A DNA stretch of 64,000 nt, taken from assembly GCA_964443495.1 (NCBI GenBank), contig CAYUCS010000001.1, positions 213,496 to 277,495 of the forward strand, given 5' to 3'. Below are positions 40,180 to 62,602 of the stretch, piece by piece (position 1 is the stretch's first letter; every line of letters begins with the position of its first letter). The notes below the pieces were generated by a model. It saw only the letters and a list, made by a program, of their open reading frames with translations. It ran no database searches and was not told the DNA's origin. This DNA is from an uncultured Gammaproteobacteria bacterium (GTDB lineage Bacteria; Patescibacteriota; Patescibacteriia; Patescibacteriales; GWE2-39-37). Both the position numbers and the translations under genes were made by a program.

Positions 40180-40211
40180 GTTGTGCCATGTTTTTTTATT
40201 AAGGCCGATTG

Positions 40212-40220
40212 TGGTATAAT
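40212..40220 (+). promoter_or_regulatory. Extended -10 promoter element TGGTATAAT
   Basis: The same 9-mer also occurs at 45400-45408 and 57224-57232. It sits between a terminator and the next ORF. Confidence 0.5.
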
Positions 40221-40227
40221 AATAGTT

Positions 40228-45928: not shown

Positions 45929-48900
45929 ATGCCAAAGAAGGTTAAAACAATCATCAGCAAATTCAAGCGATTTTTTGCTACGAACCAGCAAGAAGTTCGC
46001 CGTTCCCGGCCAGTCGTCCGCGTCATGCAGGACATCGTGCCGCCGAGCGTCCTCAGGATCTCGAATGAGGTTTTGGGCATTAAAGAATACGGTTCGAATA
46101 ATCTGAAAATTTTCGGCAGAGCCTGGCGCGGAGCGGTCGGGCTTTTCTTTTTGCTATGGACGGTTACCGGACTCGGTCCGGTCGATGTCATCCGGAAATC
46201 GGTGGCCGCTTTGGCTGGCGAAGACATCCAGACGGTCAATCTTTATGCTACGGACTGTTCCATCGAGACCGCCGCTTCCAGTAGCTGGCAGCACCTTGAA
46301 AAGATCAGCGGCGCTCCTGATTTGGCAGCCGACGCTACGAGCTCGGATTTTACGGAAGGCAACTCAGCTTCATATCTGGGCGGCAGCGGTAATGTTACGT
46401 GCACTGGCTTCAGGCAAGCTGCCCCGGCCGTCGAAATAAAGACGGAGGAGGATGCCCCGTCGGTTGTAGGAGTTGAGCCGGCCAAGGAGGCGGTCGAAAT
46501 CAAGGAAGAGCCGATTGCGGAAGATATCGCGGTCGTGAAAGAAGATGGCGAACAAGCTTCCAGCTCGACCATTGTTGAAGAAGAGAAAGCAGAAGCAACC
46601 ATTGAGGAACCGATAGTCGTCATTGAAGATGCCGCAACAAGCGGGCAGCCAAGCATTGGCATTAAAACAGAGGAGGGTGAATCGTCCAACGACACTCCCG
46701 CTTCGGAGCCGTCTGAATTGCAAACTACCGAACCGACCCCTGAAGCCGTTGAGCCGAGCGTGTTGCAGGAGACGGCCGACCTTATCATTGAGACGGTCGA
46801 GGAGGTGGCGGATATTGTAGAGAACCTGATTGACGAAATCGTGCTGATGGCTGGTGCCAAGCAGGGCGAGGATAGTCTTAAGAATTTGGGAAGGCTGAAG
46901 GGGGCGAAAATCAATCTGTCATTGTCCCAGAATTTCGCGACCTCAACCGAAAAGGAAAAGGCTGATGCCGCCGAAGTTGCCACTAGTACGTCTTTTGTCG
47001 GGGTGAAAATCCTATATTCCACCGACGCTCCAGGCGAGGACTCGCCCGACAGCAAGATCTGGCACGAGCTTGTCGAATTGCCTGAAACCGACCTGTCAGC
47101 TTGCGTCGAGGCCACCTCGAGCGACTGCCTCATTTTCAGGCTGGCTGAGTATGCCCAGGCCGGTTACCTGTCCTTCGCTGCCCCGGAGATCGAATCTTGG
47201 GAAGATGTCGAGAATATCCAGGTCAAACTAGAGGGCGGCCATAACGGCGCAGCGGACTATCGGCTGTCGCTGGACAGCGTTTGGGTCGAGGCGTCTTATG
47301 ACGATAATCGCGAAGAGTTGGATCAGGATGACGGTTATGAATCTTTTGACAAGATATTTGTCGATGGCAAGGAGATAAATTTCGAATTTACGGATGATAA
47401 TAGCGATGAGAATCTGATCATCAGGTCGAATCGCAAGGATTACTACGGCGTGACCGACGCTGTGGTCTATTTCAGCGTCACGAACGCCTCGGCGAAGCGC
47501 GAGGCGGTCAACCTCCAGGTGCACTTCCCGGAAGACAAGGGCGGCGTGGCCAAGCTGGAGCAGCTGCGCAAAGATATTTGGACCGAGACTGAGCTGGACG
47601 GCGGGGAACTGCCTTCGCCCAACGTCTTCAAGCAGGTCTTCGGCCAGGAAATCAAGCGCAAGCACGTGCCAGAAACGATGCGCCCCAAGAATAGCACTAG
47701 AGGCGGCGGCCACCTTATCGGCCCAGGCAAAACGCAGTACTACAAGATGCGTATCACTTATCCGGCCGGCACCAGGGGCGAGTTCTTCATCGAAGCGGTG
47801 GGCGACGGCCAGGGCTACGGCCTTTTGGATCCGTGGTGGAACGGCTCATGGCCGTATAAGCTGCCGATCACTATCGATAATACCGCCAATACCTCAGCAT
47901 TGACCGACTACCAGGTGCTGGTGGAAATCGATTCGACGACCGCCGGTTTCTGGGATAATGTCAACGCCGACGGTTCGGATATCCGTTTCTTGAATAGCGC
48001 CCAAGATACGCAGCTCAATCATTGGACGCAATATTTTGACAAGACCGGTTCAAGTACGCAGATTTGGGTCCAGGTCGATTCCATTCCGGCGGCCTCAACC
48101 AGCCAGATTTATCTGTATTATGGCAACGGCGCGGCGGCCTCAACCAGCGATATGTACACGACCTTCAGTTACGCTACGATGCAGGATCTGTATTACGTGG
48201 TCAGGGGCAGCTTGACCAATGCCACGGTCACGGTCGTGAGCTTGATCGATAATAATCAAGTCCAGCTCGATAACGGGACGGCCACCAATCTGAATCGCCA
48301 GCAGATTGCTAAATTGGTGCCGGTCACGCAGACTTCCGTGCTTCGCGCAAAGGGTCCGGTGCAGGCAAGCATAACCGGCGTGGCGGCCGGAGCGACCCTC
48401 GTTCCGATTTCTTATGCCGGTACGGCTTTCGTTATGCCGCTGAACTCCGGCACGACCGAGTCCTGGTCGCGCTATGCTCCGTTCGTCCGGGCGACCACTA
48501 CGATCTATAATGGTAATACCCTTGGCAATACTACGGCCATCAACGCCGGAGCGGCGGCGACGACGGCCTATAATATCACCACGACCGGCCGCCTGCTGTC
48601 GACCAACCCGATCCTGGCTGCTTGGTACGCCACCGCTACCACTTATTCAGCTGCCGTTTATCCGGCGACGACGCGCGACCTTTACGGCATCCGCTCCGGC
48701 ACGAACAACATCGGCTTTACCGGCAACACCGATTTTTCAATCTATTGTTCGAGCGGCGCTTCGCTCAATGTCACGGGTCGGACTACGGCCGCTCTGTATG
48801 CCAACACCACTTGCGCCACCGTGACTGAGGGTGGCGGCAATGCCGTCCGCCTGACCGGCCAGACCAATCCGATCGGCGGCGTTGTTTATAACGATTCTGA

Positions 48901-51900
48901 TGGAACCTCGATGACCTACATGCTTCCTGATATCGAGCTTTCAGCCGAGTATATGGTGCCACGCAACGCTGCCTATATCGCCGTCGCCTGCGTGCCGAAG
49001 CATGGCACGACCTCATTGAGCATTTATGATCCGAGCAATGTCTTTGTAACCAGCGCTACTTGTACTTCAACGACAAATAATCCAGGTAAGGTCAAATTTG
49101 GCGGCACCGATACCGTTACTTATGCGGCCGGCTCGCGCATCGTCTCGACCAACGGCAAGCCGTTCTATGCTTATTATGAAGATGTCGAACAGGTGGCGGT
49201 GACCGGCACGGGCGGCGACGAGAGCAATTTCCTTGGCGCTACGCAGGCCAGGAAGCAAGCTTCGACTTCTCCGATCATCACTTTGGGTACCGAGCAATCG
49301 AGCAAGATCACGGTTTCGGGCAAGGTTTACAGCGACCAGGGAGCGACGCCGCTCCTGACCCGGCCAGTCGTCCATCTGGTTGTCGGCGGAACCCTCATCT
49401 CATCTACCACTGCCTCCTCGACTGATGGCAGCTTCGTTTTCAATAATGTCACGATGCCGGAAACAGGCTCGAGTACCATCGTCTTTCTGGCCAGCTCGAC
49501 CGTTTCCGGTGTGACTTATGACCGCTATGCTGGTGCGGATAATATTACGGGGCTGGATATTTATCAGAATCACGTAATTGTTCGCAGTGACGCCGCCGGT
49601 TCGATCAGTAACGCTACGGTCGATCGCTACGATGCGGATCAGGACGCCTTCATTAAGGTCGCGGTGATTTCTGACAACCTGTCCGCTTCTTCGACTCAGC
49701 GGCTTTTCGTCTGGCCAGGCAGCACTTATCAGCCCGGAGGGGCGGTGACGCTGCCAGCGGGTGGCGGCGGAATCGGCGGCAGCCTCTATATCGCTACCTC
49801 CTCGATCATGAATGCCGAGGGCAATACGCTTTCGATCGGCGCTGGTTGGACCAATTTGGGCGAGTTCCAGAAGACCGCCGTCCAGTCCACCGTATTTACC
49901 GCCACTTCGACCGGTTTCGTCATCGATAACGCCACTTCGACCTTCAATCACGTCACCTTCAGTGCCAATGGCAGCTGGTCGCTGGCAACTTCGACGACTC
50001 TCGACGGCAACTTGTCCATGGCGACCGGCACCTTGTCGAGCCTTTATGATTTGACGGTCAAGGGCGGTACAGCTTCGGGCACCGGCATCGTCAGCCTGTC
50101 CGGCGGCACCTTTACGCTTCAGGGTTCGGGTGACTTCGGCGGCGCTAACGCCTGGACTTTCTATGATTTGGCTTTCGGCGACGGCGCGACCCCAGCCACG
50201 ACCACCAAGGCTGGCTTCGGTACGACCACTATCGCTAACCAGCTGGTAATCAATGCGAGCCACGTCTTGGATGCCGGCACGTCTGCTTGGATCGTAGGCG
50301 GCTCCGGCACGGCCCTGTCGGGCAGCGGCAGTCTCATCCCCTCATCTTCGCTATTCAGATTCACTGCGACGAGCAGCGTCAGCCTCGCGCCCAAGGATTT
50401 TTACCGCCTCGAGCTCGTGCCGGGGGCTGCGGGTTCGCCGAATTACGCCTTGGGAGCCGGAAGCCTATCGACGGCCGACTACTTGATAATCGGCGACGGC
50501 ACGAATCCGATCACGGTCTCGGCCAGCAATACGGCCCTAGATATAAACGGCGATTTCACCATCAATGCTTCGGCCACTTTTGCTGCGCCGACTTCTTCGA
50601 GCTTCACGGTCGCTGGCAATTGGGAAAATAACGGGACTTTCGATCATTCCGGCGGCACCGTCACGTTCGACGCTGGCAGTGCTGGGAAAATCGTCAACGT
50701 TGGCGGCTCGTCTTTCAGTACGGTGATTTTCAATAACCAGGCCGGCGACTGGACGATCGGCGAAAGCGCTACCTCGACCAGCGACTGGACGTTGGCGGCC
50801 GGAACCTTCATCGCTTCTTCTTCGATTACGATCGAAGTCGATGGGCTGTTCAGCAATCTGATCGGCGGCGCTTCGACCACCTGGGCAGGCACGACGCTCT
50901 ATCTTACGGGCGGAGCCCAGACGATCAGCGCCAGCACGACACCAGCAGAAACCTATGGCTCTTTGATTGTCGGGGCCAATACCGATGTCCGGATGTGGAA
51001 TTCTTCAGCTGCGTCATATTCCGTCGACCCGACTGGCTCGCTTTATTCGATGGATCATGGCAATGCTGACGGCGCTTTGGATATCTGGGGAGATTTCCAT
51101 ATTTCAGCCGGGACGGACGAATGGAGCTATCAGACCGATTTTGATGGCAGCGACCTCGCCGGTTCGCCCAGACAGGTCAACGTGGCCATAATTTCCGGCG
51201 GCACGGTTTCGGTCGATGGCGGCAACTTGAATATGATCGGTTCGTCAAGCCTGCCGACGACTATCGCCAACCAAGGAAGCGGCACTTATGCTTTCAATAT
51301 CAGTTCCGGTACTTTCAATGCTGATTATTACCAAGTCAGCAACGCCGATACTAACGGCCTGAATTTCTCAGGTTCGCCAGCCATCACCTCGTTGAATAAC
51401 GGCGATTTCCAGCTGGCTGGCTCGACCGGACGGGCGATTTCGCTGACGGCCAGCGCGGTTAATGCTAATCCGGGCAAGGTCATCTACGGTTGTAATTTCG
51501 CCACCACCACTGCCATCAGTTCGGCTTTTAACGTCTTTCTCGCGGCCGCGGCCGCCAGCAATTGGACCTTCGCCAACCACACCGGTACTTTCGCTGGCGA
51601 AACTTACGACAGCGATCCGGGCGATCCGACCGGCTATCTCGTCTGGGATGACAGCCCGGTCTATTCGCCGAAGGCCCGCAAATGGCGCTGGTATGACGAC
51701 ACGAACGCGGAAACTCCGGTCGTCCCGTCAGCCAACGAGGGCGTGATGCCGCAGAATATCGTCAACGGCGCCGATTTCAAGCTGCGGCAGTCGATCGATG
51801 CCACGAACATGACAGGGAATAACGTCAAGATGCGCTTGCAATATTCGACCTCGCCGACTTTCGCGAGCGATGTCAATTTCGTCGGGGAAATCGGTTCGAC

Positions 51901-54900
51901 GACGGTCGATTGGACCTATGCCAATGGCGCTGATGCTGACAATGCGGCCGTTTCGACGCTACTCTTATCCGATTCAGCCGCTGCCGCCACCCACAACGAA
52001 TCCGGCACATCGGCCTCGACCTATACCCATACCTTGAACACCGTAGCCGAGTGGGAGTTCACTCTCTTGGCGGCCAGCACCACTCCGGGAACGACCTATT
52101 ATTTCCGGCCGTATTTCAGCAATAAGCCGGTGACACTCGAAGACACGGAGACCCGACCGAGTATCTATGTCGCTGATAACATTTCCGTTTCTGGCACGGT
52201 CTATAGCGATGCTGGCTCGAACCAGCTCTTGAGCGGTCCGGTCGTCGGCTTGGCGATCGGCAATCAGCTGGTCGCGACCACGACCGCCTCGACGATCGAT
52301 GGCAGCTTCATCTTTAATAATATCACCCAGTTCTCGAGCGGCGCCTCGACAGCGATTTTCCTTGATAATTCCGAACTCGAGGCCTCGGGCGGCATCACTT
52401 ATTTCAATTCCACCTCGACCCCGGCCGATAACGGTTCCAGCGCTACCAACCCGACTGTCGTGACCCCTCCGACCAATATGCGAGACGGCGACTTGGTAAT
52501 CCTTGAAGCGGCCCATGGAGCCGGTACCGGCACCTTGTCCATTTCTAGCACTGGCGGCCAAGCCTGGACCGCCTTGACCCAGAGGGTTAATGCCACCAGG
52601 ACGGTTAACTTGTTCTGGGCGCGCTTCAACGGAACTTGGAGCGCCAACCCGAGCGTCAACATGGTCTCGGCGGTCAACAACATCGTCGTGATGCACGTCT
52701 TCCGTCCGGGCTATTCGGGCAGCACTTGGGAGATAGATGTGCCGGAAACGAGCAATACCTATGCCGCCGCTTCACCGGTCACGATTACAGGGATATCTAC
52801 CCAGACTGACGGAGCCCTGGTTTTTGCCGCCTGGACTAGTGCCGATGACAATACTTGGGGTGCGGCAACGGCCGGCTGGTCAACTCCTGGCACTGCCCAA
52901 TATCGCAACACTTCCGGTACGGCCGATCAGTCTATAACTTCCGCGTATCGTGTCATGGCCACGGCCGGACCGACTGGCAATGTTAGTAAGACGCAGACGG
53001 CATTAGGTCCTGATGCCGGCACTCGATACATCATCGCTTTCAAAGAGGTCAAGCCGACCTCGGTCTATGGTGTCGCTTTCAACCGCTATGCCGGTTCGAG
53101 TGATATGGCTAATTATGATATCTACCAAGACCGGGTCATCGTCCGCAACGACGATGCCGGTCCGATCACTAATGCTGACATCAATAATTACGATGCCGAC
53201 CAGAATTCGCAGATCAAAGCCGGCGTCGCTTCAGCGAATCTGACCGTGCCATCAACCCAGATGCTCTACATCTGGCAGAATAGTACTTTCCGGCCAGCTG
53301 GCCAAATCGCGCTCCAATCAGGTGCCGCACCCGCATCGATAGGCGGAGATTTGATAATCAATACCGGCTCTATCTTTAATGCAGAATCGAATGCCGTTTC
53401 CATAGGCGGCGATTGGACCAATCTAGGATCGTTCCAGTCGAATGCTGGCCAGACGGTCTCGTTCACCTCGACTTCGACCGGCTACAGCATCGTTACCGGC
53501 GGTTCCGGCTTCATGAATGTGGCCTTTTCAGGTGTCGGCGGCGGTTGGTCTTTCACCGACCCCGCGACCATCAACGGCGACCTGGATATGGCTACCGGCA
53601 CCTTGTCAGGCACGAATTCCATCTCGGTCAAAGGCGGCGGCGCCACCGGCAACGGCACCATCGATCTGACCGGCGGCACTTTTACGATCGATGGCACCGG
53701 CGATTTCGGCGGCTTCATCGATTGGAATTTTTACGGCCTGGAAATCGGCGACGGCGTCTGGACCGATGCCACCTCCAAGGTCGGCACTAACAATATCCTG
53801 GTCAACGGACCGATGACGATAAACGCCGGCCAAACCTTGAATGCCAGTAGCAGCACCTGGACGCTGGCGGCTAGCGGTACGCCGTTGGCTGTGAGCGGCA
53901 TCCTTAATCCGGAACAATCGACCTTCAGATTCGTTTCAACCGATGACATTAATCTGACTCCGGCAACTTTTTACAATCTTGAATTATCGCCGAACGGTGC
54001 CGGTTCGCCGAGTTACGGTTTCTATGGCGGCACCCTGGCAACTAATAACCTCACTATCGGCGACGGTACGAACCCTGTGACGGTCGCCGCCAACGTCGAT
54101 AACCCGGTCGTCGATGTCAATGGCGACTTCCTGATCCGCAGCAGCGCCATTTTCGTCGCCTCGGCTTTCAGCCCCTTCTACGCCGGCGGCAGCTGGCAGA
54201 ATGACGGCACGTTCTCGAGCAACAACGGCACAGTCGTCTTCGATGCCGGCACGACCGGCAAGACGATCGCTCCGGGCGGCTCGTCTTTTCATGGGGTCGA
54301 ATTCAACGGAGCAGCCGGTGGTTGGACTCTGGGTGCCAACGCCACTTCAACGGACAGCTTCAGCTTGGTGGCCGGCCAGTCCTTCACGCTCTCGTCCGGT
54401 TCGACCTTGGCGATCCTCAACGGCTTCAGCAACGCCTTCAACCAGGCTTCGACCACTTGGACCGGTTCGACCATCCACTTCGCCGGCAGCTCGCGCACGA
54501 TCAACGGCAAGGCCAGCAGCTCTGACGCGTACGGCACCATCAAGGTCGGCGCCAACACCGATATCAGGCTTTGGAACTCCTCGGCCACTTCGTACGACAT
54601 CGACTCAACCGGTTCATTCTATTCGATGGATCATGGCAATATCGACGGCTCGCTCTTCATTTGGGGCGATTATCACGTCGGAGCAGGGCAGACCGAGTAC
54701 TGGAATTGGCAGATCGATTTCGACGGCGCTTCGCTTGCCGGCTCGGAGCGCCAAGCCAACATACGCTTGGCTTCGAGCACGAACGTGACCGTCGATGGCG
54801 GCACGCTGCAGATCTTGGGCACCACGACGGCCAGTTCGACGGTCGATAGCCAGGGTTCAGGCTACTTCGGCTTGGCGGTCAGCAGCGGCACCCTGAATGC

Positions 54901-56281
54901 TGGTTATTATAAGATCAGCAATACCGACACCAACGGCCTCTCACTCTCGAATGCCTCGACCATCACCTCGATCGATAACGGGGAGTATGTTTTGGGAGTC
55001 AACGGCGGTTCCTCGATTACGGTCACGCCGAGCCTTATGGCTGCCAACCCGGCCAAGACGATCAGCGGCTGCAGCTTCGCTTCTTCGACCGGCGTGTTCG
55101 GCTACAACGTCAAGCTGGCCAGCGCGGCAGCGACCGAGTGGACTTTTGTTGGCCTAGCCGGCAACCTGGCTGGCGAGGATTTCGATAGCGATGTCGGCGA
55201 TCCGCGCGGCTATATCATCTGGGATAACAGTCCGACCTATGTGCCTTTATCGCAGAAATGGCAATGGTTCCATGATGAGGACCAGGAGACGCCGCTGGCT
55301 CCGGCTGGCGGGGAAGAGGTGGCACCGTCGGGCATTCCGCGGGGCAACGTCCTCAAGCTGCGGCTCTCGATCAAGGCGACGAACGGTCTGGCAGGAAGCA
55401 ACGTCAAGATGAGGCTGCAGTATTCGACCTTTTCCGATTTTTCCAATAACGTCAATTTCGTGGGCGAAATCGGCTCCTCAACTTCAATCTGGAATTATGG
55501 CGACGGCATCGACGCTGATAATGCGCCGGCCAGTTCGTACTTCCTGTCTGACTCCGATGCCACCTCGACGCATAACGAATCCGGCATCTCGGCCTCGACC
55601 TATGCCCATGGCGCCGATGCGGTCGCCGAGTGGGAATTTACCGTCGCCAATAACGGCGCCGAAGCAGGCACGACCTACTTCTTCCGCGCCTATACTGATC
55701 AGTACGGCGTCCAAGGCGTTGAGCCGAATCTGGGCAATTTTTATCCGAGCCTGACCGCCGGCGATGAGGCATTGGGCACGACCTTGTCCGGACTGCCGAG
55801 CGGTACGGCGACCGAAGGAGTAGTTACTAATATCAATACTGACCAAGTGACGGTACCGTTCGGCAATCTGCCGTTCGGCAGTTCGGTAACCGGCGCTCAT
55901 CGTCTGCTGATCTCGACCAATGGCGAGAGCGGATATCAGCTGTTCGTCAAGCAGAGCCAGGACCTGACTAATGGCCATGGCGTGACGATCAATGCCGTCA
56001 CGGCTGACAACGCCAATCCTCAGGCTTGGCCGATGACGCCTGATCCGGCTGCTTTCGGCTATCACACGAGCGACGACACCCTGTCCGGCGCTTCGCCGTC
56101 GCGTTTCGCTCCGAATAACAGCTACGCCAAGTTCGAGACAGGCATCCAAGAGGTCGGCTACAGTCCGATTCCTGTCTCCAACGATCCGATCGACCTGATC
56201 TATCGCATCGAGGTTTCGGATCAGCAGCAGCCGGGCGACTATGTAACCCAAGTCGAATATATCTTAGTGCCGACATATTGA
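45929..56281 (+). CDS. Giant (3,450 aa) signal-anchored surface protein: acidic spacer, DUF2341-like module, two ~1-kaa super-repeats, C-terminal WxL-like domain
   Basis: Uninterrupted 10,353-nt ORF. TM AVGLFFLLWTVTGLGPV. E/P/A-rich region at ~aa 170-300. DUF2341-type segment WWNGSWPYKLPITIDN...DIRF...IYLYYGN at ~47830-48135. The last 170 aa are homologous to the C-terminus of the 57413..58435 product. Confidence 0.85.
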   Translation: MPKKVKTIISKFKRFFATNQQEVRRSRPVVRVMQDIVPPSVLRISNEVLGIKEYGSNNLKIFGRAWRGAVGLFFLLWTVTGLGPVDVIRKSVAALAGEDIQTVNLYATDCSIETAASSSWQHLEKISGAPDLAADATSSDFTEGNSASYLGGSGNVTCTGFRQAAPAVEIKTEEDAPSVVGVEPAKEAVEIKEEPIAEDIAVVKEDGEQASSSTIVEEEKAEATIEEPIVVIEDAATSGQPSIGIKTEEGESSNDTPASEPSELQTTEPTPEAVEPSVLQETADLIIETVEEVADIVENLIDEIVLMAGAKQGEDSLKNLGRLKGAKINLSLSQNFATSTEKEKADAAEVATSTSFVGVKILYSTDAPGEDSPDSKIWHELVELPETDLSACVEATSSDCLIFRLAEYAQAGYLSFAAPEIESWEDVENIQVKLEGGHNGAADYRLSLDSVWVEASYDDNREELDQDDGYESFDKIFVDGKEINFEFTDDNSDENLIIRSNRKDYYGVTDAVVYFSVTNASAKREAVNLQVHFPEDKGGVAKLEQLRKDIWTETELDGGELPSPNVFKQVFGQEIKRKHVPETMRPKNSTRGGGHLIGPGKTQYYKMRITYPAGTRGEFFIEAVGDGQGYGLLDPWWNGSWPYKLPITIDNTANTSALTDYQVLVEIDSTTAGFWDNVNADGSDIRFLNSAQDTQLNHWTQYFDKTGSSTQIWVQVDSIPAASTSQIYLYYGNGAAASTSDMYTTFSYATMQDLYYVVRGSLTNATVTVVSLIDNNQVQLDNGTATNLNRQQIAKLVPVTQTSVLRAKGPVQASITGVAAGATLVPISYAGTAFVMPLNSGTTESWSRYAPFVRATTTIYNGNTLGNTTAINAGAAATTAYNITTTGRLLSTNPILAAWYATATTYSAAVYPATTRDLYGIRSGTNNIGFTGNTDFSIYCSSGASLNVTGRTTAALYANTTCATVTEGGGNAVRLTGQTNPIGGVVYNDSDGTSMTYMLPDIELSAEYMVPRNAAYIAVACVPKHGTTSLSIYDPSNVFVTSATCTSTTNNPGKVKFGGTDTVTYAAGSRIVSTNGKPFYAYYEDVEQVAVTGTGGDESNFLGATQARKQASTSPIITLGTEQSSKITVSGKVYSDQGATPLLTRPVVHLVVGGTLISSTTASSTDGSFVFNNVTMPETGSSTIVFLASSTVSGVTYDRYAGADNITGLDIYQNHVIVRSDAAGSISNATVDRYDADQDAFIKVAVISDNLSASSTQRLFVWPGSTYQPGGAVTLPAGGGGIGGSLYIATSSIMNAEGNTLSIGAGWTNLGEFQKTAVQSTVFTATSTGFVIDNATSTFNHVTFSANGSWSLATSTTLDGNLSMATGTLSSLYDLTVKGGTASGTGIVSLSGGTFTLQGSGDFGGANAWTFYDLAFGDGATPATTTKAGFGTTTIANQLVINASHVLDAGTSAWIVGGSGTALSGSGSLIPSSSLFRFTATSSVSLAPKDFYRLELVPGAAGSPNYALGAGSLSTADYLIIGDGTNPITVSASNTALDINGDFTINASATFAAPTSSSFTVAGNWENNGTFDHSGGTVTFDAGSAGKIVNVGGSSFSTVIFNNQAGDWTIGESATSTSDWTLAAGTFIASSSITIEVDGLFSNLIGGASTTWAGTTLYLTGGAQTISASTTPAETYGSLIVGANTDVRMWNSSAASYSVDPTGSLYSMDHGNADGALDIWGDFHISAGTDEWSYQTDFDGSDLAGSPRQVNVAIISGGTVSVDGGNLNMIGSSSLPTTIANQGSGTYAFNISSGTFNADYYQVSNADTNGLNFSGSPAITSLNNGDFQLAGSTGRAISLTASAVNANPGKVIYGCNFATTTAISSAFNVFLAAAAASNWTFANHTGTFAGETYDSDPGDPTGYLVWDDSPVYSPKARKWRWYDDTNAETPVVPSANEGVMPQNIVNGADFKLRQSIDATNMTGNNVKMRLQYSTSPTFASDVNFVGEIGSTTVDWTYANGADADNAAVSTLLLSDSAAAATHNESGTSASTYTHTLNTVAEWEFTLLAASTTPGTTYYFRPYFSNKPVTLEDTETRPSIYVADNISVSGTVYSDAGSNQLLSGPVVGLAIGNQLVATTTASTIDGSFIFNNITQFSSGASTAIFLDNSELEASGGITYFNSTSTPADNGSSATNPTVVTPPTNMRDGDLVILEAAHGAGTGTLSISSTGGQAWTALTQRVNATRTVNLFWARFNGTWSANPSVNMVSAVNNIVVMHVFRPGYSGSTWEIDVPETSNTYAAASPVTITGISTQTDGALVFAAWTSADDNTWGAATAGWSTPGTAQYRNTSGTADQSITSAYRVMATAGPTGNVSKTQTALGPDAGTRYIIAFKEVKPTSVYGVAFNRYAGSSDMANYDIYQDRVIVRNDDAGPITNADINNYDADQNSQIKAGVASANLTVPSTQMLYIWQNSTFRPAGQIALQSGAAPASIGGDLIINTGSIFNAESNAVSIGGDWTNLGSFQSNAGQTVSFTSTSTGYSIVTGGSGFMNVAFSGVGGGWSFTDPATINGDLDMATGTLSGTNSISVKGGGATGNGTIDLTGGTFTIDGTGDFGGFIDWNFYGLEIGDGVWTDATSKVGTNNILVNGPMTINAGQTLNASSSTWTLAASGTPLAVSGILNPEQSTFRFVSTDDINLTPATFYNLELSPNGAGSPSYGFYGGTLATNNLTIGDGTNPVTVAANVDNPVVDVNGDFLIRSSAIFVASAFSPFYAGGSWQNDGTFSSNNGTVVFDAGTTGKTIAPGGSSFHGVEFNGAAGGWTLGANATSTDSFSLVAGQSFTLSSGSTLAILNGFSNAFNQASTTWTGSTIHFAGSSRTINGKASSSDAYGTIKVGANTDIRLWNSSATSYDIDSTGSFYSMDHGNIDGSLFIWGDYHVGAGQTEYWNWQIDFDGASLAGSERQANIRLASSTNVTVDGGTLQILGTTTASSTVDSQGSGYFGLAVSSGTLNAGYYKISNTDTNGLSLSNASTITSIDNGEYVLGVNGGSSITVTPSLMAANPAKTISGCSFASSTGVFGYNVKLASAAATEWTFVGLAGNLAGEDFDSDVGDPRGYIIWDNSPTYVPLSQKWQWFHDEDQETPLAPAGGEEVAPSGIPRGNVLKLRLSIKATNGLAGSNVKMRLQYSTFSDFSNNVNFVGEIGSSTSIWNYGDGIDADNAPASSYFLSDSDATSTHNESGISASTYAHGADAVAEWEFTVANNGAEAGTTYFFRAYTDQYGVQGVEPNLGNFYPSLTAGDEALGTTLSGLPSGTATEGVVTNINTDQVTVPFGNLPFGSSVTGAHRLLISTNGESGYQLFVKQSQDLTNGHGVTINAVTADNANPQAWPMTPDPAAFGYHTSDDTLSGASPSRFAPNNSYAKFETGIQEVGYSPIPVSNDPIDLIYRIEVSDQQQPGDYVTQVEYILVPTY
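49305..52176 (+). repeat. Super-repeat copy A of the giant gene (~957 aa)
   Basis: It begins ITVSGKVYSDQGATPLL.. and ends ..TTYYFRPYFSNKPVTLEDTETRPSIYVADN. It is colinear with copy B: YDRYAGADNITGLDIYQNHVIVR / FNRYAGSSDMANYDIYQDRVIVR, and WRWYDD..NVKMRLQYSTS / WQWFHD..NVKMRLQYSTF. Confidence 0.8.
52180..55765 (+). repeat. Super-repeat copy B of the giant gene (~1,195 aa) carrying a ~230-aa insertion (~52380-53060)
   Basis: It begins ISVSGTVYSDAGSNQLL... The insertion (..PPTNMRDGDLVILEAAHGAGTGTLSISSTGGQAWTAL..ALVFAAWTSADDNTW..) has no counterpart in copy A. Confidence 0.8.
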
Positions 56282-57039
56282 TGAAATTTTCAATTTTCAA
56301 TTTTCAATTTTCAATTGGCCAAGGGTTATTGTTGATGTTTTTAGGTATGGTTTTGTCCGGTTGCCAGCTGCCGTTTGCTGACAAGACGCCGGAGCGCCCT
56401 GAGGTGCTGATTGCGCAGGAGTGCGGTATGGACGGCCTCAAATGCTGCTTGACCGAACCGGCTTGTTCTTACGGCCAGAAATGCTGTACCGATCCGGCTG
56501 ATCCGAGCCGCAACCGCTGCGCTGACGAGTGCGGCTGTGGCGGCCAGGAAGAGTTCTGCTGCGTTGACGGGCCCAAGTGCAAGGCCGGGCTGTCGTGTCA
56601 GTCGGGCAATTGCCAGCTGTGCGGCATCGAGGGCAAGGCTTGCTGCACCGGCGATGACGGTAATGTCCTGGCCGACGGTTTGGCTGGCTACAACCCGGCT
56701 TGCCCGGGCAAGGCGGCCAGCTCGACCGCTTTGGCCTGTCAGAATGACACTTGCGTCGCCTGCGGCCTGCCGGGCAATCCTTGCTGCATTGTCGGAGACA
56801 AGTGCATGAGTCCGGCGACAGGCTTGGCCGAGTGCCTGGCTGGCACTTGCCGCCTGTGCGGCGTCAACGGCGAACCGGCCTGCCAAACCGAGCCGCGCTG
56901 CCAGTCAGGCCACTTGCTTAACAACGACGCTTGCCTGCCGTGCGGCCAGGCTAACCAGCCGTGCTGCCAGGATCAGCAAGGCCAGCAAATCTGCGATAGT
57001 AAAAAGAATCTGGTCTGCGAGTTGGGGTTTTGCAAGTAG
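56281..57039 (+). CDS. Cysteine-rich lipoprotein (~37 Cys in 252 aa) with six CxxCGxxGxxCC-type modules
   Basis: The ATG overlaps the giant gene's TGA (TGATG). Signal peptide MKFSIFNFQFSIGQGLLLMFLGMVLSG|C with lipobox LSGC. Modules: ECGMDGLKCC, ECGCGGQEEFCC, CQLCGIEGKACC, CVACGLPGNPCC, CRLCGVNGEPAC, CLPCGQANQPCC. Confidence 0.75.
   Translation: MKFSIFNFQFSIGQGLLLMFLGMVLSGCQLPFADKTPERPEVLIAQECGMDGLKCCLTEPACSYGQKCCTDPADPSRNRCADECGCGGQEEFCCVDGPKCKAGLSCQSGNCQLCGIEGKACCTGDDGNVLADGLAGYNPACPGKAASSTALACQNDTCVACGLPGNPCCIVGDKCMSPATGLAECLAGTCRLCGVNGEPACQTEPRCQSGHLLNNDACLPCGQANQPCCQDQQGQQICDSKKNLVCELGFCK
56285..56316 (+). repeat. Heptanucleotide tandem repeat (AATTTTC)x4.6 inside the lipoprotein signal-peptide codons
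   Basis: Units at 56285-91, 56292-98, 56299-305 and 56306-312, plus a partial aatt. The unit length is not divisible by 3. Confidence 0.85.
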
Positions 57040-57232: not shown

Positions 57233-57412
57233 AAATTTAATAACTATATTTTCATTCCCAATTCGCCGAAGTCGGAATAATTAATCTTAACATTTGTCGC
57301 GTTTGCCCCAGGTCCAATGGGGTTAAGGTCGAAAAACCCGGTAAATGTTATACGGACAAGGGCGAAGACGGAAAAAAGCACACGCTTATTAAACAATAAA
57401 AATATCATCCCC

Positions 57413-58435
57413 ATGCAAAAATTAAGAAAAATCGTAGCCTTCATGGCCATCGTCTCGTTGGTGGCTGTCAACGGCTTCGTTTCAACGGCAAATGCCGCAT
57501 CAATAACAAACGCCAGTGATCGCTTAAGCGATTCTGATGTTAGTGTTTCCGCAACGCATACCATTACATTTACAACAACGGTTCCTACTCCGACCAATGG
57601 ATATTTTCAGGTTGTGATTCCGGCTGCTTTTGGCAACATGGTTTCCCCAACTTGTCCTGGTGGCATGACTGCCTCAGTTATTGACACTGAAACGTCAAGA
57701 TGTATTTCTACCGCAGGCACAGCCTCGGGAACGTACACCATAGTGCTCACTGGTATTGCTAACCCAGCATCAGTTGGTAGTCAGATTATAAACTTAACCA
57801 ACAAGGATAATAGTAATAATCTGTTAGAATCTGCTACAATGATGGTTGCTATAGTTGATAATATTGACGTATCCGCCACCGTTGCCGCCACTTTGACTTT
57901 TGAAATCCGCCCTCTGGCTACTACGACCCCGATCAACGGCGCCACCACTACCGCTGCTTCGGCCACGACTTCGTTGGCCTTCGGCACGCTGCAGGTCGGC
58001 ACCTCGTCGATCATGGGCCAGGAACTTCGCGTAACTACCAACGCCGATAGCGGTTACACGGTGACCGTCGAACAGGATTCCAACCTGACCAGCGCTGGCG
58101 GCTCCGATATTGACGCTTTCGCCAACGGCGCCACCTCCACTCCTGCCGCTTGGGCAGCTCCGGCCGGTACCCTTGATTCAGAGGCTACCTATGGCCACTT
58201 CGGTTTGACGACCGATGATGCTACTGGCGGCGGCACCCAGGACTTTACCTCAAGCAAGTGGCGCGGTCTCGATAATAACGTCCCAGTGGCCGTGATGTAC
58301 CACAACGGCCCGGCTGACGGCTCGACCCAGGACAAGGGTATGGCCAAGGTCGCTTACCGCATCCAGATCTCGGCACTGCAAGAAGCCGGTGATTACACCA
58401 GTGTTCTGACCTACATCGCCACCCCAGTTTACTAA
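57413..58435 (+). CDS. Secreted protein: N-terminal Ig-like domain plus a C-terminal WxL-like domain (Tyr replaces Trp)
   Basis: ATG 57413 gives signal peptide MQKLRKIVAFMAIVSLVAVNGFVSTANA; the track start at 57317 has no support. The C-terminal ~190 aa align with the giant's C-terminus: FG.L..G.S, TN..SGY...V.Q, FG..T.DD, YRI..S..Q.GDY.....YI..P.Y. Confidence 0.8.
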   Translation: MQKLRKIVAFMAIVSLVAVNGFVSTANAASITNASDRLSDSDVSVSATHTITFTTTVPTPTNGYFQVVIPAAFGNMVSPTCPGGMTASVIDTETSRCISTAGTASGTYTIVLTGIANPASVGSQIINLTNKDNSNNLLESATMMVAIVDNIDVSATVAATLTFEIRPLATTTPINGATTTAASATTSLAFGTLQVGTSSIMGQELRVTTNADSGYTVTVEQDSNLTSAGGSDIDAFANGATSTPAAWAAPAGTLDSEATYGHFGLTTDDATGGGTQDFTSSKWRGLDNNVPVAVMYHNGPADGSTQDKGMAKVAYRIQISALQEAGDYTSVLTYIATPVY

Positions 58436-58458
58436 ACGAAAACAGTCCGTACATAAAA

Positions 58459-58487
58459 AGAGGCGCCTAGCATGGGGCGCCTCTTTT
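58459..58487 (+). terminator. Rho-independent terminator after the WxL-like gene
   Basis: agaggcgcc/ggcgcctct 9-bp stem, 8-nt loop, TTTT. Confidence 0.8.
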
Positions 58488-58534
58488 GTTTGTGATGACG
58501 CCAATAATAAGGGAAAAATCTCTCGGATTTTCCT

Positions 58535-58563
58535 TTGTCAAAGGACGTAAAAATTGCTATAAT
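58535..58563 (+). promoter_or_regulatory. Promoter of the three-paralog operon (TTGTCA - 17 nt - TGCTATAAT)
   Basis: -35 at 58535-58540 and extended -10 at 58555-58563. Confidence 0.65.
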
Positions 58564-58647
58564 TTTATCAAATAGGCAGCTATTATTTTTATAATTGGCC
58601 GCCCCACATCAAGGAGTTTTTTATTCAATATTGGCAGAAATTTTTTT

Positions 58648-59772
58648 ATGAAGAAAACGAGCATTCTTGGCCGCTTGGCCGGCCTGATATCATTGGCGTC
58701 ATTGGTCATCATGACTATGGCCATGCCGCAGAAAACTTTGGCGGCCGAAGCCATTATGTTGAGCCCGTCGCGGGTGGAAGAATTGGTTTCGCCAGGGCAG
58801 GTGATAACCAAGACCATCAAGGTGACTAACAATTCGGAGTCACCGAAGAAAATCTACGCCTATCTGCGTGATTTCACCGCCGAGGGCGAGGAGGGCAAGC
58901 CTCGCTTGATCGTCCCGGGTACGGAACAGGGTTCATTCTTGTCATCTTGGATCGCGATCACTTCCGAGGGTGTGGATATTTCCGCGGGAGGCGATGCGGA
59001 GTTCGCTTACACCGTGACCGTGCCGCAGAATGCCGGCCCGGGCGGCTATTACGGCGCCATCATATTCGGCACCCGGGCGCCTGACGTCAAGATCGACTCG
59101 GTTGAAAAAGGCGCGGCTATCGGCGTGGCCCAGCAGGCCGGCTCACTGATTCTCTTGCAGATTCCTGGCGATGCCAACGAGACCGCGTCAATTCGCGATT
59201 TCATCACCGACAAGGAGTTTTACAGTACGCCCTTCAACGTCAATTTTACAGCCAGGATTCAGAACCAGGGCAATGTCCACATCAAGCCGCGCGGCACGAT
59301 TGAAATCACCAACATGCTTGGCAACAAAGTCGCTAACGTCCGGGTCAACGATACCGGTTCGAACATTCTGCCTAACAGTACTCGACGCTACGAGATGCCA
59401 TGGAGCGGTGATTTCGGCTTCGGCAAGTACAAGGCCCAGCTAGCCTTGACCTATGGCACATCGGCTGAGCAGGGAGGTAACGGCATGCAATCGCTGACCT
59501 CGATCAAATATTTCTGGATTTTCCCGTGGAAGATTATCGGCATCGTCGTTTCGAGTATCGCTTTCGTCATCGCCGCCATCTTTGTCTTCCTGAAGATTTA
59601 CAAGAACAAGGCGATCGAGAGCGCCATGAGTGAGATGGGGGTCGGCAGCGAATACTACGTCAAGAAGACTCAAGGCGGCTCGCCGGCTTTGCATCTTGGG
59701 CTGACCCTGGCGATACTTTTGGCGGTCGTCTTCCTGCTGGCAGCCGTGACTTATTTCCTGTTCTTCGCCTAA
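58648..59772 (+). CDS. DUF916/DUF3324-like cell-surface protein, paralog 1 (signal peptide, two beta-sandwich domains, C-terminal TM anchors)
   Basis: PGQVITKTIKVTNNSESPKKIYAYLRDF...SWIAI.....ISAGG.AEF.YTV.VPQNAGPGGYYGAIIF, then ...IQNQGNVHIKPRGTIEITN..G..V.....N..G..ILPNSTRRYE..W....GFGKYKA.L.L.YG, then FWIFPW + TM + KIYKNK. Confidence 0.75.
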   Translation: MKKTSILGRLAGLISLASLVIMTMAMPQKTLAAEAIMLSPSRVEELVSPGQVITKTIKVTNNSESPKKIYAYLRDFTAEGEEGKPRLIVPGTEQGSFLSSWIAITSEGVDISAGGDAEFAYTVTVPQNAGPGGYYGAIIFGTRAPDVKIDSVEKGAAIGVAQQAGSLILLQIPGDANETASIRDFITDKEFYSTPFNVNFTARIQNQGNVHIKPRGTIEITNMLGNKVANVRVNDTGSNILPNSTRRYEMPWSGDFGFGKYKAQLALTYGTSAEQGGNGMQSLTSIKYFWIFPWKIIGIVVSSIAFVIAAIFVFLKIYKNKAIESAMSEMGVGSEYYVKKTQGGSPALHLGLTLAILLAVVFLLAAVTYFLFFA

Positions 59773-59793
59773 TCAAAAAAGCAAACGGTAATA

Positions 59794-60777
59794 ATGAAAA
59801 ATTCCGGAAAAATATCCTTGTCTTTAGCGCTGGCCCTGATGATCGGCTGGCATGGCATCGGCACTGCCCAGGCGCAGACCATAGCCGCCGACGTGACGAT
59901 AACGCCGAGCATCATCGATGAGCAGGCGGAGGCCAAGGAAATCATCGAACGCACAGTCAAATTGAAGAATAATACCGCCGCCAAACTCGAACTCTATCCC
60001 ACGGTCAATGACGTCAAGCAGGACGAGGGTAAACAGGAGTTCGTCGATCCGAGCAACCTGGATCGCGCCACTTCGCTGGCCCGTTGGATCGAGATCCGGC
60101 GCGGAGTCGTCGAACTGAATCCTGGACAGGAAGTAGAGCTGCCGCTGAAGATCACTGTCAATATGAACGCCACGCCGGGCAAGTATTTCGCCGCCATCAC
60201 CTTTCCCAACGGTTCCAATCGTTCCGAGGCCGAAGCGCAAGGCGGCCAGCCGCAGATGATGATCAGTATCGAGGTGAGGGAGCATGCGGTCGAGAAAGCG
60301 GAAAATTTCGTCTTTTCGACGGAGAAATCGGTGAATTTCAACAATCAGGTCAAGTTCCTGATCGGGTTGAAGAATATCGGCAACAAGGAGATTTACCCCA
60401 AGGGATCGGTCATCATCTATGATCGGCGAGAGCGGGAGGTCGAGGTCATTGACGTGAATTATAACCAGCAGATCGTCAAGCCGGGCGAGAACCCGCAGTT
60501 CGAGCCGACCTGGTCGGCCGGCAAGCGGATGGGCAAGTTCAAAGCCAAGCTGGAGGTCGAATACGGCAAGTCAGGCGACCGCAACATCCAGGACACTATC
60601 TATTTCTGGATCCTGCCTTGGTGGCTCCTGGCCATGATCTGCCTCTTGGTCCTGCTGCTGATCACAAGCGTTTGGCTCCTTTACGCCCGCATCAAGCACC
60701 ACAGCCGCATCATCCAGTCAGCCCAGGAAGAAGCGAAATCACCGATAATAAATTTAAAAAATAGGCCAAGGCATTAA
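59794..60777 (+). CDS. DUF916/DUF3324-like cell-surface protein, paralog 2
   Basis: Same architecture: KLKNNTAAKLELYP, ARWIEI, TPGKYFAAITF, LKNIGNKEIYPKGSVIIYD, KPGENPQFEPTWS, MGKFKAKLEVEYG, FWILPWW + TM + RIKHH. Confidence 0.75.
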   Translation: MKNSGKISLSLALALMIGWHGIGTAQAQTIAADVTITPSIIDEQAEAKEIIERTVKLKNNTAAKLELYPTVNDVKQDEGKQEFVDPSNLDRATSLARWIEIRRGVVELNPGQEVELPLKITVNMNATPGKYFAAITFPNGSNRSEAEAQGGQPQMMISIEVREHAVEKAENFVFSTEKSVNFNNQVKFLIGLKNIGNKEIYPKGSVIIYDRREREVEVIDVNYNQQIVKPGENPQFEPTWSAGKRMGKFKAKLEVEYGKSGDRNIQDTIYFWILPWWLLAMICLLVLLLITSVWLLYARIKHHSRIIQSAQEEAKSPIINLKNRPRH

Positions 60778-60782
60778 TAATT

Positions 60783-62519
60783 ATGAAACCCAGTCCTAAG
60801 ACAAAAATAATCGTTTCACTGGCTTTGGCCGCGATTTTCAGCGGCTTTTTAGGCGGTCAGGCGTCTGCCCAGCAGGACAGCTCGATGATACTTTCCATCA
60901 CGCCGCCGCTCTTCAAGGTGAATATGAAGCCGGGCGAGACTTGGTCCAGCGTGGTCAAAGTCGTGAATAATAACGCTTATCCCGTTACCGTCTATACGCA
61001 GGTGGCTGATTTCAAGTCCGGTGAGGCTGGCGGAGTGGAGTTCGTCAAGAGCGAACCGGACGCCGCCGGCAAGGGCTACACCTTGAGCCAGTGGCTGGAA
61101 ATAACTTCCGAGCCGGTAGAAATCAGCGCTTTTGGCAGCAAGGATGTGCCTTTCAAGGTCATGCTGCCGCAGACCGCCGATCCGGGAGGACATTATGCCG
61201 CCATCTTGGTCGGCAACAAGCCGATCGACAACACCACGGGCAGCGTGGTCAAGATATCTTCCAAGCTGGCTTCGCTGCTTTTGGTGCGAGTGGCTGGCGA
61301 AGTGGTGGAAAAAGGCGACGTACGCGAATTCTCGACCAGCAAGGACTTCGCCAAGAAGACCGAGGCTGATTTCACGGTCCGTTTCGTCAACAAGGGCAAT
61401 GTTCATCTGCGGCCAGAGGGCGAGGTCAAGATTACCAACATGTTCGGCCAGACCCGCGGCGTGATTTCGATCAACAAGAAATCTGAATTCGGCAATGTCC
61501 TGCCAGAAAGCGAGAAGAAATGGGAGTTCAACTGGAAGGGTGAGAGTAGCATCTGGGACGCCGGGCGCATGCAGGCCGAACTTTTCTTGAGCTACGGCGA
61601 AGAAGGCAAGCAATCCGAAGTCCGGAAAATAAATTTCTGGGTGGTCAATCTCAAGCCGACCTTGATCGTCCTTGGCAGCCTGCTGCTTGTCGTTTTACTG
61701 TTCATTTTCTTCGTCAGGCGCTTCATCAAGAAGAGCATCAGCAAGGCTAGGATGGAGGCTGATGCATTGGCCGGGCGATTGGGGCGCACGGCGCCGGCCG
61801 TCGAGCGGCCAACTGCGTCCGTCAAGGCGCCGGCCGGCAAGATGGATGGCGTGGTCGTCAATCTGCGTGATGCTGGTTCTAATTCTAATAATTTAAATAA
61901 TAAAACAACCAAACTTATGAACTGGAGTTTCTTAAAGAATGTTCTGCTCTTTATCGTCGTCGCCTTAATCGTGGTAGCCGGCGCCTTCTTCTACAGTCAG
62001 TACAAGAAGAACTCGTCAGGCAGCGCCACTGAGGACAATGCGCCCAAGAGCACTGGCGTGACAGTGATCAATAACGGCGCCACTTCATCCGCCCAGGCCG
62101 TCGAGACGGTCGATGAGACAGCTACGACGACCGCCACTTCGACCGAGGCTGTCGCCACTTCTACGGATGCTATGGCCACTTCGACCGAGGCTGTCGCCAC
62201 TTCGACTGCCACTACCACGGCTGAGGCTTTGCCTAATGCTTTAGACAAAAAGGATGTCAAGCTTAACATACTGAACGGCAGCGGCGTGACCGGGGTGAGC
62301 GGCAAGGCCGCCAAGATCATTGAGGATGCCGGCTATGTCGTGGCCTCGAAGGGTAATGCGGCTAACTTCAACTTCGCTGTGACTGAAATTACTTACGGTC
62401 CGGATGTTGCAGACAATGCGCTGGCCATCGACCAGCTTGTTGGCGGCGATAGCAAATTGACCGAAGACCCGGCTGCTAGCGGCAAGATAACCGTCACTCT
62501 GGGTAAGAATTTCAAATAA
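60783..62519 (+). CDS. DUF916/DUF3324-like cell-surface protein, paralog 3, extended by a second TM, a Thr/Ala/Ser-rich linker and a C-terminal LytR_C-like domain
   Basis: PGETWSSVVKVVNNNAYPVTVYTQVADF, SQWLEI, DPGGHYAAILVG, FVNKGNVHLRPEGEVKITN, LPESEKKWEFNW, FWVVNL + TM. The C-terminus VKLNILNGSGVTGVSGKAAKIIEDAGYVV...ITVTLGKNF matches the LytR_C pattern. Confidence 0.75.
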   Translation: MKPSPKTKIIVSLALAAIFSGFLGGQASAQQDSSMILSITPPLFKVNMKPGETWSSVVKVVNNNAYPVTVYTQVADFKSGEAGGVEFVKSEPDAAGKGYTLSQWLEITSEPVEISAFGSKDVPFKVMLPQTADPGGHYAAILVGNKPIDNTTGSVVKISSKLASLLLVRVAGEVVEKGDVREFSTSKDFAKKTEADFTVRFVNKGNVHLRPEGEVKITNMFGQTRGVISINKKSEFGNVLPESEKKWEFNWKGESSIWDAGRMQAELFLSYGEEGKQSEVRKINFWVVNLKPTLIVLGSLLLVVLLFIFFVRRFIKKSISKARMEADALAGRLGRTAPAVERPTASVKAPAGKMDGVVVNLRDAGSNSNNLNNKTTKLMNWSFLKNVLLFIVVALIVVAGAFFYSQYKKNSSGSATEDNAPKSTGVTVINNGATSSAQAVETVDETATTTATSTEAVATSTDAMATSTEAVATSTATTTAEALPNALDKKDVKLNILNGSGVTGVSGKAAKIIEDAGYVVASKGNAANFNFAVTEITYGPDVADNALAIDQLVGGDSKLTEDPAASGKITVTLGKNFK

Positions 62520-62560
62520 GCCGTCTTCTGTGATCGTAGGATATTAATCTCCGACCACGC

Positions 62561-62579: not shown

Positions 62580-62602
62580 AATCGGCCTGCGGGCCCAGGT
62601 CT

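Follow-up and report, generated by a model that had tools for sequence, protein, structure and literature searches.

Patescibacteria are thought to live on the surface of other microbes, to which they would be fastened above all by their giant surface proteins. To our knowledge, almost nothing is known about how such proteins are constructed. Here, we describe a 3,450-aa protein of this type that is encoded in a 64,000-nt stretch of contig CAYUCS010000001.1 (assembly GCA_964443495.1; positions 213,496 to 277,495 of the forward strand). This whole stretch is referred to as the window, and positions are given in its coordinates unless another locus is named.

As reported in work on the ABY1-class Patescibacterium danicum, many of the largest patescibacterial proteins carry DUF2341 and/or FhaB domains at variable positions; these giants lack full-length homologs and are suspected adhesins shaped by domain reshuffling (PMC11809585). 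Giant DUF2341 proteins with shuffled, repeated modules are already known in Patescibacteria, and the protein described here resembles them in its very large size, its DUF2341 module, its repeated modules in variable order, the lack of full-length homologs beyond close relatives and the adhesion or host-interaction role proposed for such proteins. It differs in being somewhat smaller than the proteins counted in that study (>4,000 aa), in that no FhaB or hemagglutinin domain was detected by Pfam, and in a layout of two units with a nested domain found in one orthologous pair only.

Judged from its sequence, it is a giant modular cell-envelope or surface protein of a Patescibacteria (Candidate Phyla Radiation, CPR) bacterium close to Ca. 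Falkowbacteria. PurA, encoded in the same window, shares 86% identity with a Ca. Falkowbacteria protein, and its remaining named matches are patescibacterial, the next ones being from Liptonbacteria, Sungbacteria, Zambryskibacteria and the 'Patescibacteria group'. The exact sequence of the giant protein occurs in a public collection, where it is encoded on a 772-kb NCBI contig. It is modular, all-beta and extracytoplasmic in type, and its predicted order runs from a basic head with one hydrophobic anchor through an acidic spacer, a DUF2341 module and a beta-rich region to two tandem ~950-aa units and a ~190-aa C-terminal domain. This architecture is probably best explained by two steps: an ancestral single-unit protein roughly doubled its rod through an ancient whole-unit duplication, and the lengthened, putatively adhesive fiber then acquired a nested domain, presumably for binding.

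Two diverged copies of a ~950-aa unit

The units, termed A and B, each comprise a ~75-aa N-terminal sandwich, a ~710-aa solenoid-like region and a ~155-aa C-terminal sandwich (modules 1 to 3). Module borders were taken from match boundaries and an AlphaFold2 (AF2) model of unit A, whose confidence is given below as predicted local distance difference test (pLDDT):

45929..56281, forward strand: giant ORF (open reading frame), a single uninterrupted frame of 3,450 aa plus stop
49304..49528, forward strand: unit A, module 1, an uninterrupted ~75-aa beta-sandwich (ITVSGKVYSD...) with six strands in the AF2 model (pLDDT >90)
49529..51658, forward strand: unit A, module 2 (aa 1201–1910, ~710 aa), all-beta and repetitive (AF2 pLDDT >90)
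51659..52123, forward strand: unit A, module 3 (aa 1911–2065; W.W..D ... NVKMRLQYS ... TTYYFR.Y), matching its unit B counterpart with phmmer at 1.1e-49
52178..52390, forward strand: unit B, module 1, strands 1–5 (aa 2084–2154), 51% identical to aa 1126–1197 of unit A
52391..53050, forward strand: inserted domain (aa 2155–2374, ~220 aa), with borders from homology to free-standing proteins
53051..53089, forward strand: unit B, module 1, last strand (…TSVYGVAFNRYAG), after the insert and aligning to ...SGVTYDRYAG of unit A
53090..55234, forward strand: unit B, module 2 (aa 2388–3102), solenoid-like, matching unit A module 2 over its full length (phmmer 3.5e-204)
55238..55696, forward strand: unit B, module 3 (aa 3104–3256), C-terminal sandwich (phmmer 1.1e-49; tiles 55–62% identical to unit A)

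BLASTP of aa 1101–2083 against aa 2084–3450 returned 447 identities over 897 positions (50%; 829 bits, E=0), and a second alignment covered the first 75 residues of each unit (38/75, 51%; E=8e-17), with module 1 of unit A matching aa 2085–2158. A tiled self-comparison of the whole protein revealed one off-diagonal linking aa 1124–2062 of unit A to aa 2082–3255 of unit B, unbroken except at aa ~2159–2360 of unit B, which have no counterpart in unit A. The colinear duplication of about 1,000 aa put forward in the original prediction, which had been made from the sequence alone, is thereby borne out, and every motif quoted in it was found.

Across the 931 codons that align between the units, nucleotide identity is 58%, falling to 44% at third codon positions and standing at 49% at identical four-fold-degenerate residues. 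As synonymous sites are thus close to saturation, the duplication is ancient. In a neighbor-joining (NJ) tree of units, unit A grouped with unit A of the ortholog P0121 (see below) and unit B with its unit B, implying that the duplication predates the split of the two organisms. Each unit also contains an older repeat with a period of ~260 aa and 25–42% identity (aa 1300–1378 resembling aa 1558–1636 in unit A, and aa 2471–2570 resembling aa 2730–2832 in unit B), showing that the rod region went through more than one round of duplication.

Orthologs, single-unit relatives and strain mosaicism

With unit A as query, an exhaustive HMMER search of 1.8 billion representatives identified 1,215 relatives, mostly of 2–7.7 kaa (thousand residues), of which ~340 were strong matches at E<=1e-30. 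The best of them, P0121 (3,406 aa), is present on two contigs from two samples and possesses both units as well as the insert at the same site. Its identity to the window protein varies strongly by segment:

N-terminus: 35% identity
DUF2341 region: 74% identity
Unit A: 59% identity
Unit B: 51% identity
Insert: 80% identity
C-terminal tail: 52% identity

The insert is the best conserved segment of this pair. In addition, a protein from an independent assembly of a different sequencing run (P0273) has the same length of 3,450 aa and is 92.9% identical without indels. Three further relatives, P0151 (2,239 aa), P0157 (2,315 aa) and P0152 (2,493 aa), share the N-terminus, DUF2341 region and C-terminal tail with the window protein and contain a single unit without the insert. 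Among the window protein and the 150 best representatives, the two-unit arrangement with insert occurs solely in the window protein and P0121; the remaining representatives harbor one to three rod modules in differing orders. In this superfamily, shuffled modules are the rule. P0152, for instance, carries an extra small sandwich of the C-terminal type ('W.W..D … YYCFR') at aa 1161–1345, ahead of its unit, and other giant proteins have up to 13 copies of module 3 (P0212).

Comparison of the gene (45929–56281) with positions 5146–15498 of another locus (L068) revealed a recombination mosaic between two strains. Nucleotide identity amounts to 80–90% over aa 1–1800, 100% over aa 1841–1990 and ~100% from aa 2400 to the end, with a sharply divergent patch in the nested domain (aa 2157–2260, up to 27 differences per 90 nt) and a second divergent patch at aa 2351–2379. 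Most differences sit at third codon positions and the window contains no template repeat, which points to recombination tracts and not to mutagenesis of the diversity-generating retroelement type; the variable patch of the insert was consequently dismissed as a target of such an element.

A domain nested in the second unit

With an extended query, homology of the insert runs from aa ~2155 (GITYFNSTSTPADNG…) to aa ~2374 (…GTRYIIAFKEVK), narrowing to nt 52391–53050 the block that had been placed at ~52380–53060 and described as lacking in unit A, where it is indeed missing. Mapped onto the unit A model, the insertion site falls between strand 5 (STAIFL) and strand 6 (GVAFNRY) of module 1 of unit B. 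According to this model, the insert is a nested domain that interrupts the N-terminal sandwich of unit B in the loop leading to its last strand.

A query comprising aa 2159–2360 retrieved 194 homologs, the best with 62% identity at 100% query coverage. All of these are small proteins of 225–354 aa without a Pfam domain, and identity of the insert to free-standing proteins ranges from 45% to 62%. The word-indexed search that yielded them missed the window protein and P0121, and the giants came from an exhaustive search of representatives. Built from a 99-sequence alignment, the AF2 model of the insert is all-beta and confident (pLDDT 95.4; predicted template modeling score, pTM, 0.92). Because of this fold and the free-standing full-length homologs, and with host sandwich strands on both sides, the insert is, as modeled, a complete and autonomously folding domain.

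A Foldseek search of this model against predicted viral structures (BFVD) returned 54 matches at E<1e-3 (E down to 5e-8; template modeling score, TM, 0.6–0.72), all of them uncharacterised Caudovirales proteins or, in several cases, mycobacteriophage 'minor tail proteins'. The likeness is at the level of fold only: no PHROG match was obtained at E<=0.1, and membership in a phage protein family was rejected. The inserted domain is a member of an undescribed, uncharacterised all-beta family. Neither a second copy of the insert DNA nor a donor copy was found within the 64-kb window.

As unit A lacks the domain, and so do the single-unit relatives P0151, P0152 and P0157, insertion after the duplication, as stated in the original prediction, is the parsimonious order of events. 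After the duplication had lengthened the rod, a complete ~220-aa domain would have entered unit B at a surface loop of its N-terminal sandwich.

Distribution of the inserted domain in other organisms

Scanning of GTDB species representatives for the inserted domain yielded 62 loci, for which ORFs were reconstructed and examples scanned. Five architectures were found, and the domain is terminal and exposed everywhere except in the window protein and its ortholog. The simplest consists of a signal peptide and the domain alone and occurs as tandem ~250-aa paralogs in Sediminibacterium. In Deltaproteobacteria/Thermodesulfobacteriota and one Nitrospirae genome, the domain follows a pilin-like N-terminal hydrophobic helix; in one such case (P0021), its gene lies between small pilin-like genes and genes for PilM/N, a secretin and an MshE-type ATPase. 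Betaproteobacterial proteins combine a signal peptide and the domain with Calx-beta, Laminin_G_3 or Big_1 and DUF6701, while those of Chitinophagaceae carry a signal peptide, the domain, further modules and a sorting tail of the type IX secretion system (T9SS). In the fifth architecture, the domain forms the N-terminus of a Ca. Parcubacteria giant of at least 3,613 aa (L003).

Two of these loci place the domain within larger gene clusters. On the Methylophilaceae chromosome OZ248406.1 (L014, 5277–19731), it occupies the N-terminus of a 948-aa Calx-beta and DUF6701 protein, whose gene is flanked by MshEN/T2SSE (MshE-type ATPase), T2SSF, six N-methyl pilin and secretin genes. At a second locus (L065, 5146–17062), it resides on a 353-aa pilin-like protein beside PilM/N and secretin. 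Both are proteobacterial type IV pilus clusters of the mannose-sensitive hemagglutinin (MSHA)/type II secretion system (T2SS) type, and they suggest that the domain is an uncharacterised pilus-associated module. In view of their pilus gene context, the DUF6701 proteins are presumably analogous to MshQ; a literature search on DUF6701/MshQ gave nothing relevant, and neither the DUF6701 proteins nor the insert could be named through NCBIfam.

In the Ca. Parcubacteria metagenome-assembled genome (CAWHBO010000001.1; L003, 9758–20678), a signal-anchor is directly followed by the domain, which is 65% identical to the window insert. Past the domain, this giant continues with what by eye are Fn3-like repeats and repetitive sequence of beta-helix type before running off the locus. 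Its presence at the N-terminus of such a protein shows that CPR giants reuse the domain as a head module. When copies of the domain were compared in an NJ tree, those from CPR (window protein, P0273, P0121 and L003) formed one clade in 192 of 200 bootstraps, with the pilin-linked deltaproteobacterial copies as sister group (176/200). The simplest history would be that the nested copy derives from a terminal copy already circulating among CPR giants.

Fold of the units

The AF2 model of unit A was computed from a 35-row alignment and reached a mean pLDDT of 86, with values above 90 for residues 1–780 and low confidence for module 3. In this model, module 2 is built almost wholly of strands of 3–5 residues. 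Between model residues 110 and 530, the strand pattern autocorrelates at 7 and 21 residues, as expected of a solenoid with three strands per coil. Foldseek returned no significant match of the unit A model in PDB (best E 0.09); beta-helix passengers, pectate lyases and tailspikes appeared solely among the non-significant matches (E>=0.09). Of the suggestion that the Gly/Thr/Ser-rich parts are beta-helix-like, the all-beta, periodically repeated character therefore holds up in the model, while a significant match to a beta-helix in PDB did not materialize. We regard the ~710-aa region as a beta-solenoid-like rod, a modeled fold that is supported but not proven.

Upstream parts, C-terminal domain and neighboring genes

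The remaining parts of the giant protein and the genes downstream of it are as follows:

45929..46192, forward strand: basic N-terminal head (aa 1–65, net charge +10), then hydrophobic aa 69–88 (Kyte-Doolittle scan, composition)
46424..46918, forward strand: acidic spacer (aa 166–330), 20% Glu, net charge -31
47834..48169, forward strand: DUF2341 module, with WWNGSWPYKLPITIDN motif at aa 636 and Pfam match at aa 681–747
48170..49297, forward strand: beta-rich T/A/G/S region (aa 748–1123) downstream of DUF2341, no family
55715..56278, forward strand: C-terminal tail domain (aa 3263–3450; …GDYVTQVEYILVPTY), homologous to the downstream 372-aa protein
57317..58435, forward strand: secreted protein of 372 aa with a C-terminal homolog of the giant's tail domain (BLASTP E=2e-13; phmmer 1.7e-12)
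58648..62519, forward strand: three WxLIP-like (DUF916-type) genes of 374, 327 and 578 aa

The signal-anchor helix, the acidic E/P/A-rich spacer and the DUF2341-type module that had been read upstream of the units were all recovered. The hydrophobic stretch behind the basic head is the sole strongly hydrophobic segment of the protein in the Kyte-Doolittle scan and represents a putative signal-anchor or long signal peptide. The spacer falls in the least conserved part of the protein, namely the N-terminal 660 aa. DUF2341 (PF10102) passed its gathering score clearly (E=8.7e-17; 61.8 bits vs. a cut-off of 23.4), and the relative P0157 bears the NCBI name 'DUF2341 domain-containing protein'; no other family exceeded its threshold in any segment of the giant protein with Pfam or NCBIfam. 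The beta-rich region matched no Pfam family at threshold, the only hit being a weak one to Lipoprotein_15 (E=0.0035). Together with the end of the preceding segment (aa 661–1123), it forms the part that is 74% identical to P0121 and 48–55% identical to the single-unit relatives. A sequence search of PDB with the giant protein gave no match.

The C-terminal tail is conserved in the single-unit relatives (47–56% identity). Its membership in the WxL family (PF13731) was considered and rejected, as the tail matched no Pfam family at E<=10, WxL included, and the giant protein sequence contains no W-x-L motifs. Of the three WxLIP-like proteins, the 578-aa one (ORF 60783–62519) matched WxLIP_PGBD above threshold (E=2.9e-7; 31 bits vs. 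a cut-off of 27.3) and also LytR_C, whereas WxLIP_PGBD/HBD matches for ORFs 58648–59772 and 59794–60777 remained below it. The 374- and 327-aa proteins end in a C-terminal transmembrane segment, and the 578-aa protein has transmembrane segments followed by the C-terminal LytR_C. A gene for an FGE-sulfatase-like protein comes after these three and completes the cluster (57317–63451); the same downstream gene order flanks the ortholog P0121 (L001). The C-terminal domain of the giant protein may attach it to a surface complex by docking to the downstream WxLIP-like membrane proteins.

Between the giant gene and this cluster, a 253-aa ORF with a TTG start (56278–57039, forward strand) begins within the stop codon region of the giant gene and overlaps it. 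Its N-terminus is lipoprotein-like (…LSGC), its body is repetitive and highly Cys-rich (C..C…CC patterns), and Pfam gave no match. This ORF is apparently missing beside P0121, where two small reverse-strand genes are found instead. Further large surface-type genes lie upstream of the giant gene, at 28721–36562 (reverse strand) and 40183–42660 (forward strand); the large proteins encoded nearby comprise one of 1,217 aa with five Big_2 and two Big_5 domains, one of 1,395 aa with a multicopper-oxidase-like domain and one of 825 aa with a sub-threshold match to the lamin-tail domain (LTD; 32.3 bits vs. a cut-off of 34.3). Genes for envelope proteins are densely packed in this part of the genome.

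Proposed function and alternative explanations

We propose that the protein forms an extended, membrane-anchored adhesive surface fiber, with the nested domain as a ligand- or host-binding module that would be displayed sideways from the rod. The binding role is suggested by relatives of the domain, which occupy terminal positions in pilus-associated proteins, T9SS cargo and phage tail proteins. The protein would be fixed to the envelope by its N-terminal anchor, its C-terminal domain or both, with the WxLIP-like proteins as partners.

Several observations weigh against this explanation as a whole. The NJ tree does not place units A and B as sisters relative to the units of single-unit relatives, and the solenoid reading rests on a 35-sequence AF2 model that matched no beta-helix in PDB significantly. 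Likewise, the membrane anchor is a putative one, called from a Kyte-Doolittle scan, and the C-terminal tail has no Pfam match. The inserted domain has no characterised homolog: searched on its own, it matched no profile in Pfam or NCBIfam and none in PHROG at E<=0.1, and its model found nothing in PDB with Foldseek (best E 0.012, TM ~0.2). Function, finally, is inferred throughout.

As to the origin of the two units, genes of such size and repetitiveness are generally easy to misassemble, and the repeat might in principle reflect a collapsed or expanded repeat or a chimeric contig, although nothing specific to that effect was found. However, the copies differ at 42% of nucleotide positions and share no exact word longer than 21 nt, a divergence that read collapse or expansion does not explain. 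Moreover, the independent assembly P0273 reproduces identical length and order, and P0121 has the same architecture on two contigs. We therefore consider an assembly artefact ruled out, in agreement with the original prediction, which had taken the duplication to be old for its moderate protein identity. Module shuffling deserves more weight, even if we deem it rather unlikely: unit B would then have been captured from another giant gene, paralogous or foreign, through recombination, possibly with the insert already in place. The identity between units A and B (51%) hardly exceeds that to the units of P0151 and P0152 (46–49%), and in the star-like NJ tree units A, B and those of the single-unit relatives are all 44–51% identical pairwise, so that an in-situ tandem duplication is not proven against module capture. 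Relatives vary in module order and copy number, the gene is itself a mosaic of strains, and domain reshuffling has been proposed for such proteins (PMC11809585). Speaking for tandem duplication, on the other hand, are the seamless junction, at which ~20 aa separate module 3 of unit A from module 1 of unit B in the order and register of a tandem copy, the lack of unit modules in any other gene of the window, and the similar GC content, overall and at third codon positions, across segments of the giant gene.

The order of events could also be the reverse, with the ~220-aa block being ancestral to the unit and deleted from unit A and every single-unit relative. Nested domains are easily deleted and parsimony alone is insufficient to decide the matter, but the block would then have to have been lost precisely and independently at least four times (in unit A, P0151, P0152 and P0157). 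None of the other 149 relatives scanned has the domain, which is a free N-terminal module in other lineages, and the single clade of CPR copies, including the N-terminal one of L003, fits a mobile module; ancestry of the block is accordingly highly improbable. With regard to function, right-handed beta-helices are common in pectate lyases and tailspikes, and the protein might mainly be enzymatic, for instance a polysaccharide lyase or hydrolase of beta-helix fold that attacks polymers of the host's or its own envelope. The occurrence of pectate lyases and tailspikes among the non-significant Foldseek matches and of M23 peptidase and FGE-sulfatase-like genes nearby would be in line with this. 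As opposed to that, neither Pfam nor NCBIfam identified a catalytic family, no lyase or hydrolase matched structurally with significance, and few positions of the unit alignment are nearly invariant (G596, F613, D614), making a mainly enzymatic role unlikely. A fiber lengthened by unit duplication and later fitted with a nested domain accordingly remains our preferred explanation.

A further-reaching idea, which we offer tentatively and hold to be less likely true than false, is that the nested domain is a new, widespread receptor-binding module that serves as host-recognition head on the duplication-lengthened rod. If so, one module would be common to MSHA-type pilus-associated proteins, T9SS cargo, CPR giants and, at the level of fold, phage minor tail proteins, and the strain mosaicism within the nested domain would reflect selection on host range in a Falkowbacteria-like episymbiont. 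Provided that the two-step history is correct, the locus offers a clean and datable case of whole-unit lengthening followed by the gain of a nested domain, for which the ortholog and the single-unit relatives serve as controls. The most valuable by-product may be the nested-domain family itself, as it combines a confident fold and a wide distribution with adhesin-type contexts and is still undescribed. Recurring at exposed termini of secreted proteins and of proteins associated with pili across several phyla, and having neither a Pfam entry nor a solved analog, it represents a target for binding studies.

Comparison with known systems

The downstream locus is reminiscent of the WxL/Csc loci of Gram-positive bacteria: a large secreted protein is followed by a small one sharing its C-terminal domain and then by three transmembrane proteins, one with a WxLIP_PGBD match above threshold and two with weak ones. 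In contrast to those loci, the shared C-terminal domain in the window is not WxL, no LPXTG protein was seen and the organism is a CPR bacterium. Lacking a WxL match in this domain, the locus is not classed as WxL/Csc.

The rod shares features with beta-helix adhesins and rods, such as the autotransporter passengers Ag43 and EspP and phage tailspikes. Like these, it is, as modeled, long and all-beta, with about three short strands per ~21 residues, a sequence rich in G/T/S/N and an extension of the rod by internal duplication. It differs from them in the absence of a significant sequence or Foldseek match and of an autotransporter beta-barrel, and in that no outer membrane is expected.

As for the nested domain, the phage minor tail proteins in BFVD resemble it in fold over ~230 aligned columns (TM 0.6–0.72), with 12–21% sequence identity, no PHROG match and predicted models on the phage side. 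With the DUF6701 and pilin-like proteins, the domain shares full-length homology (47–55% identity to betaproteobacterial and 55–62% to deltaproteobacterial copies). There, it is terminal, behind a signal peptide or pilin helix, whereas in the window protein it is nested mid-protein. In itself, duplication combined with the insertion of a domain is nothing unusual for giant modular surface proteins and is typical of their evolution.

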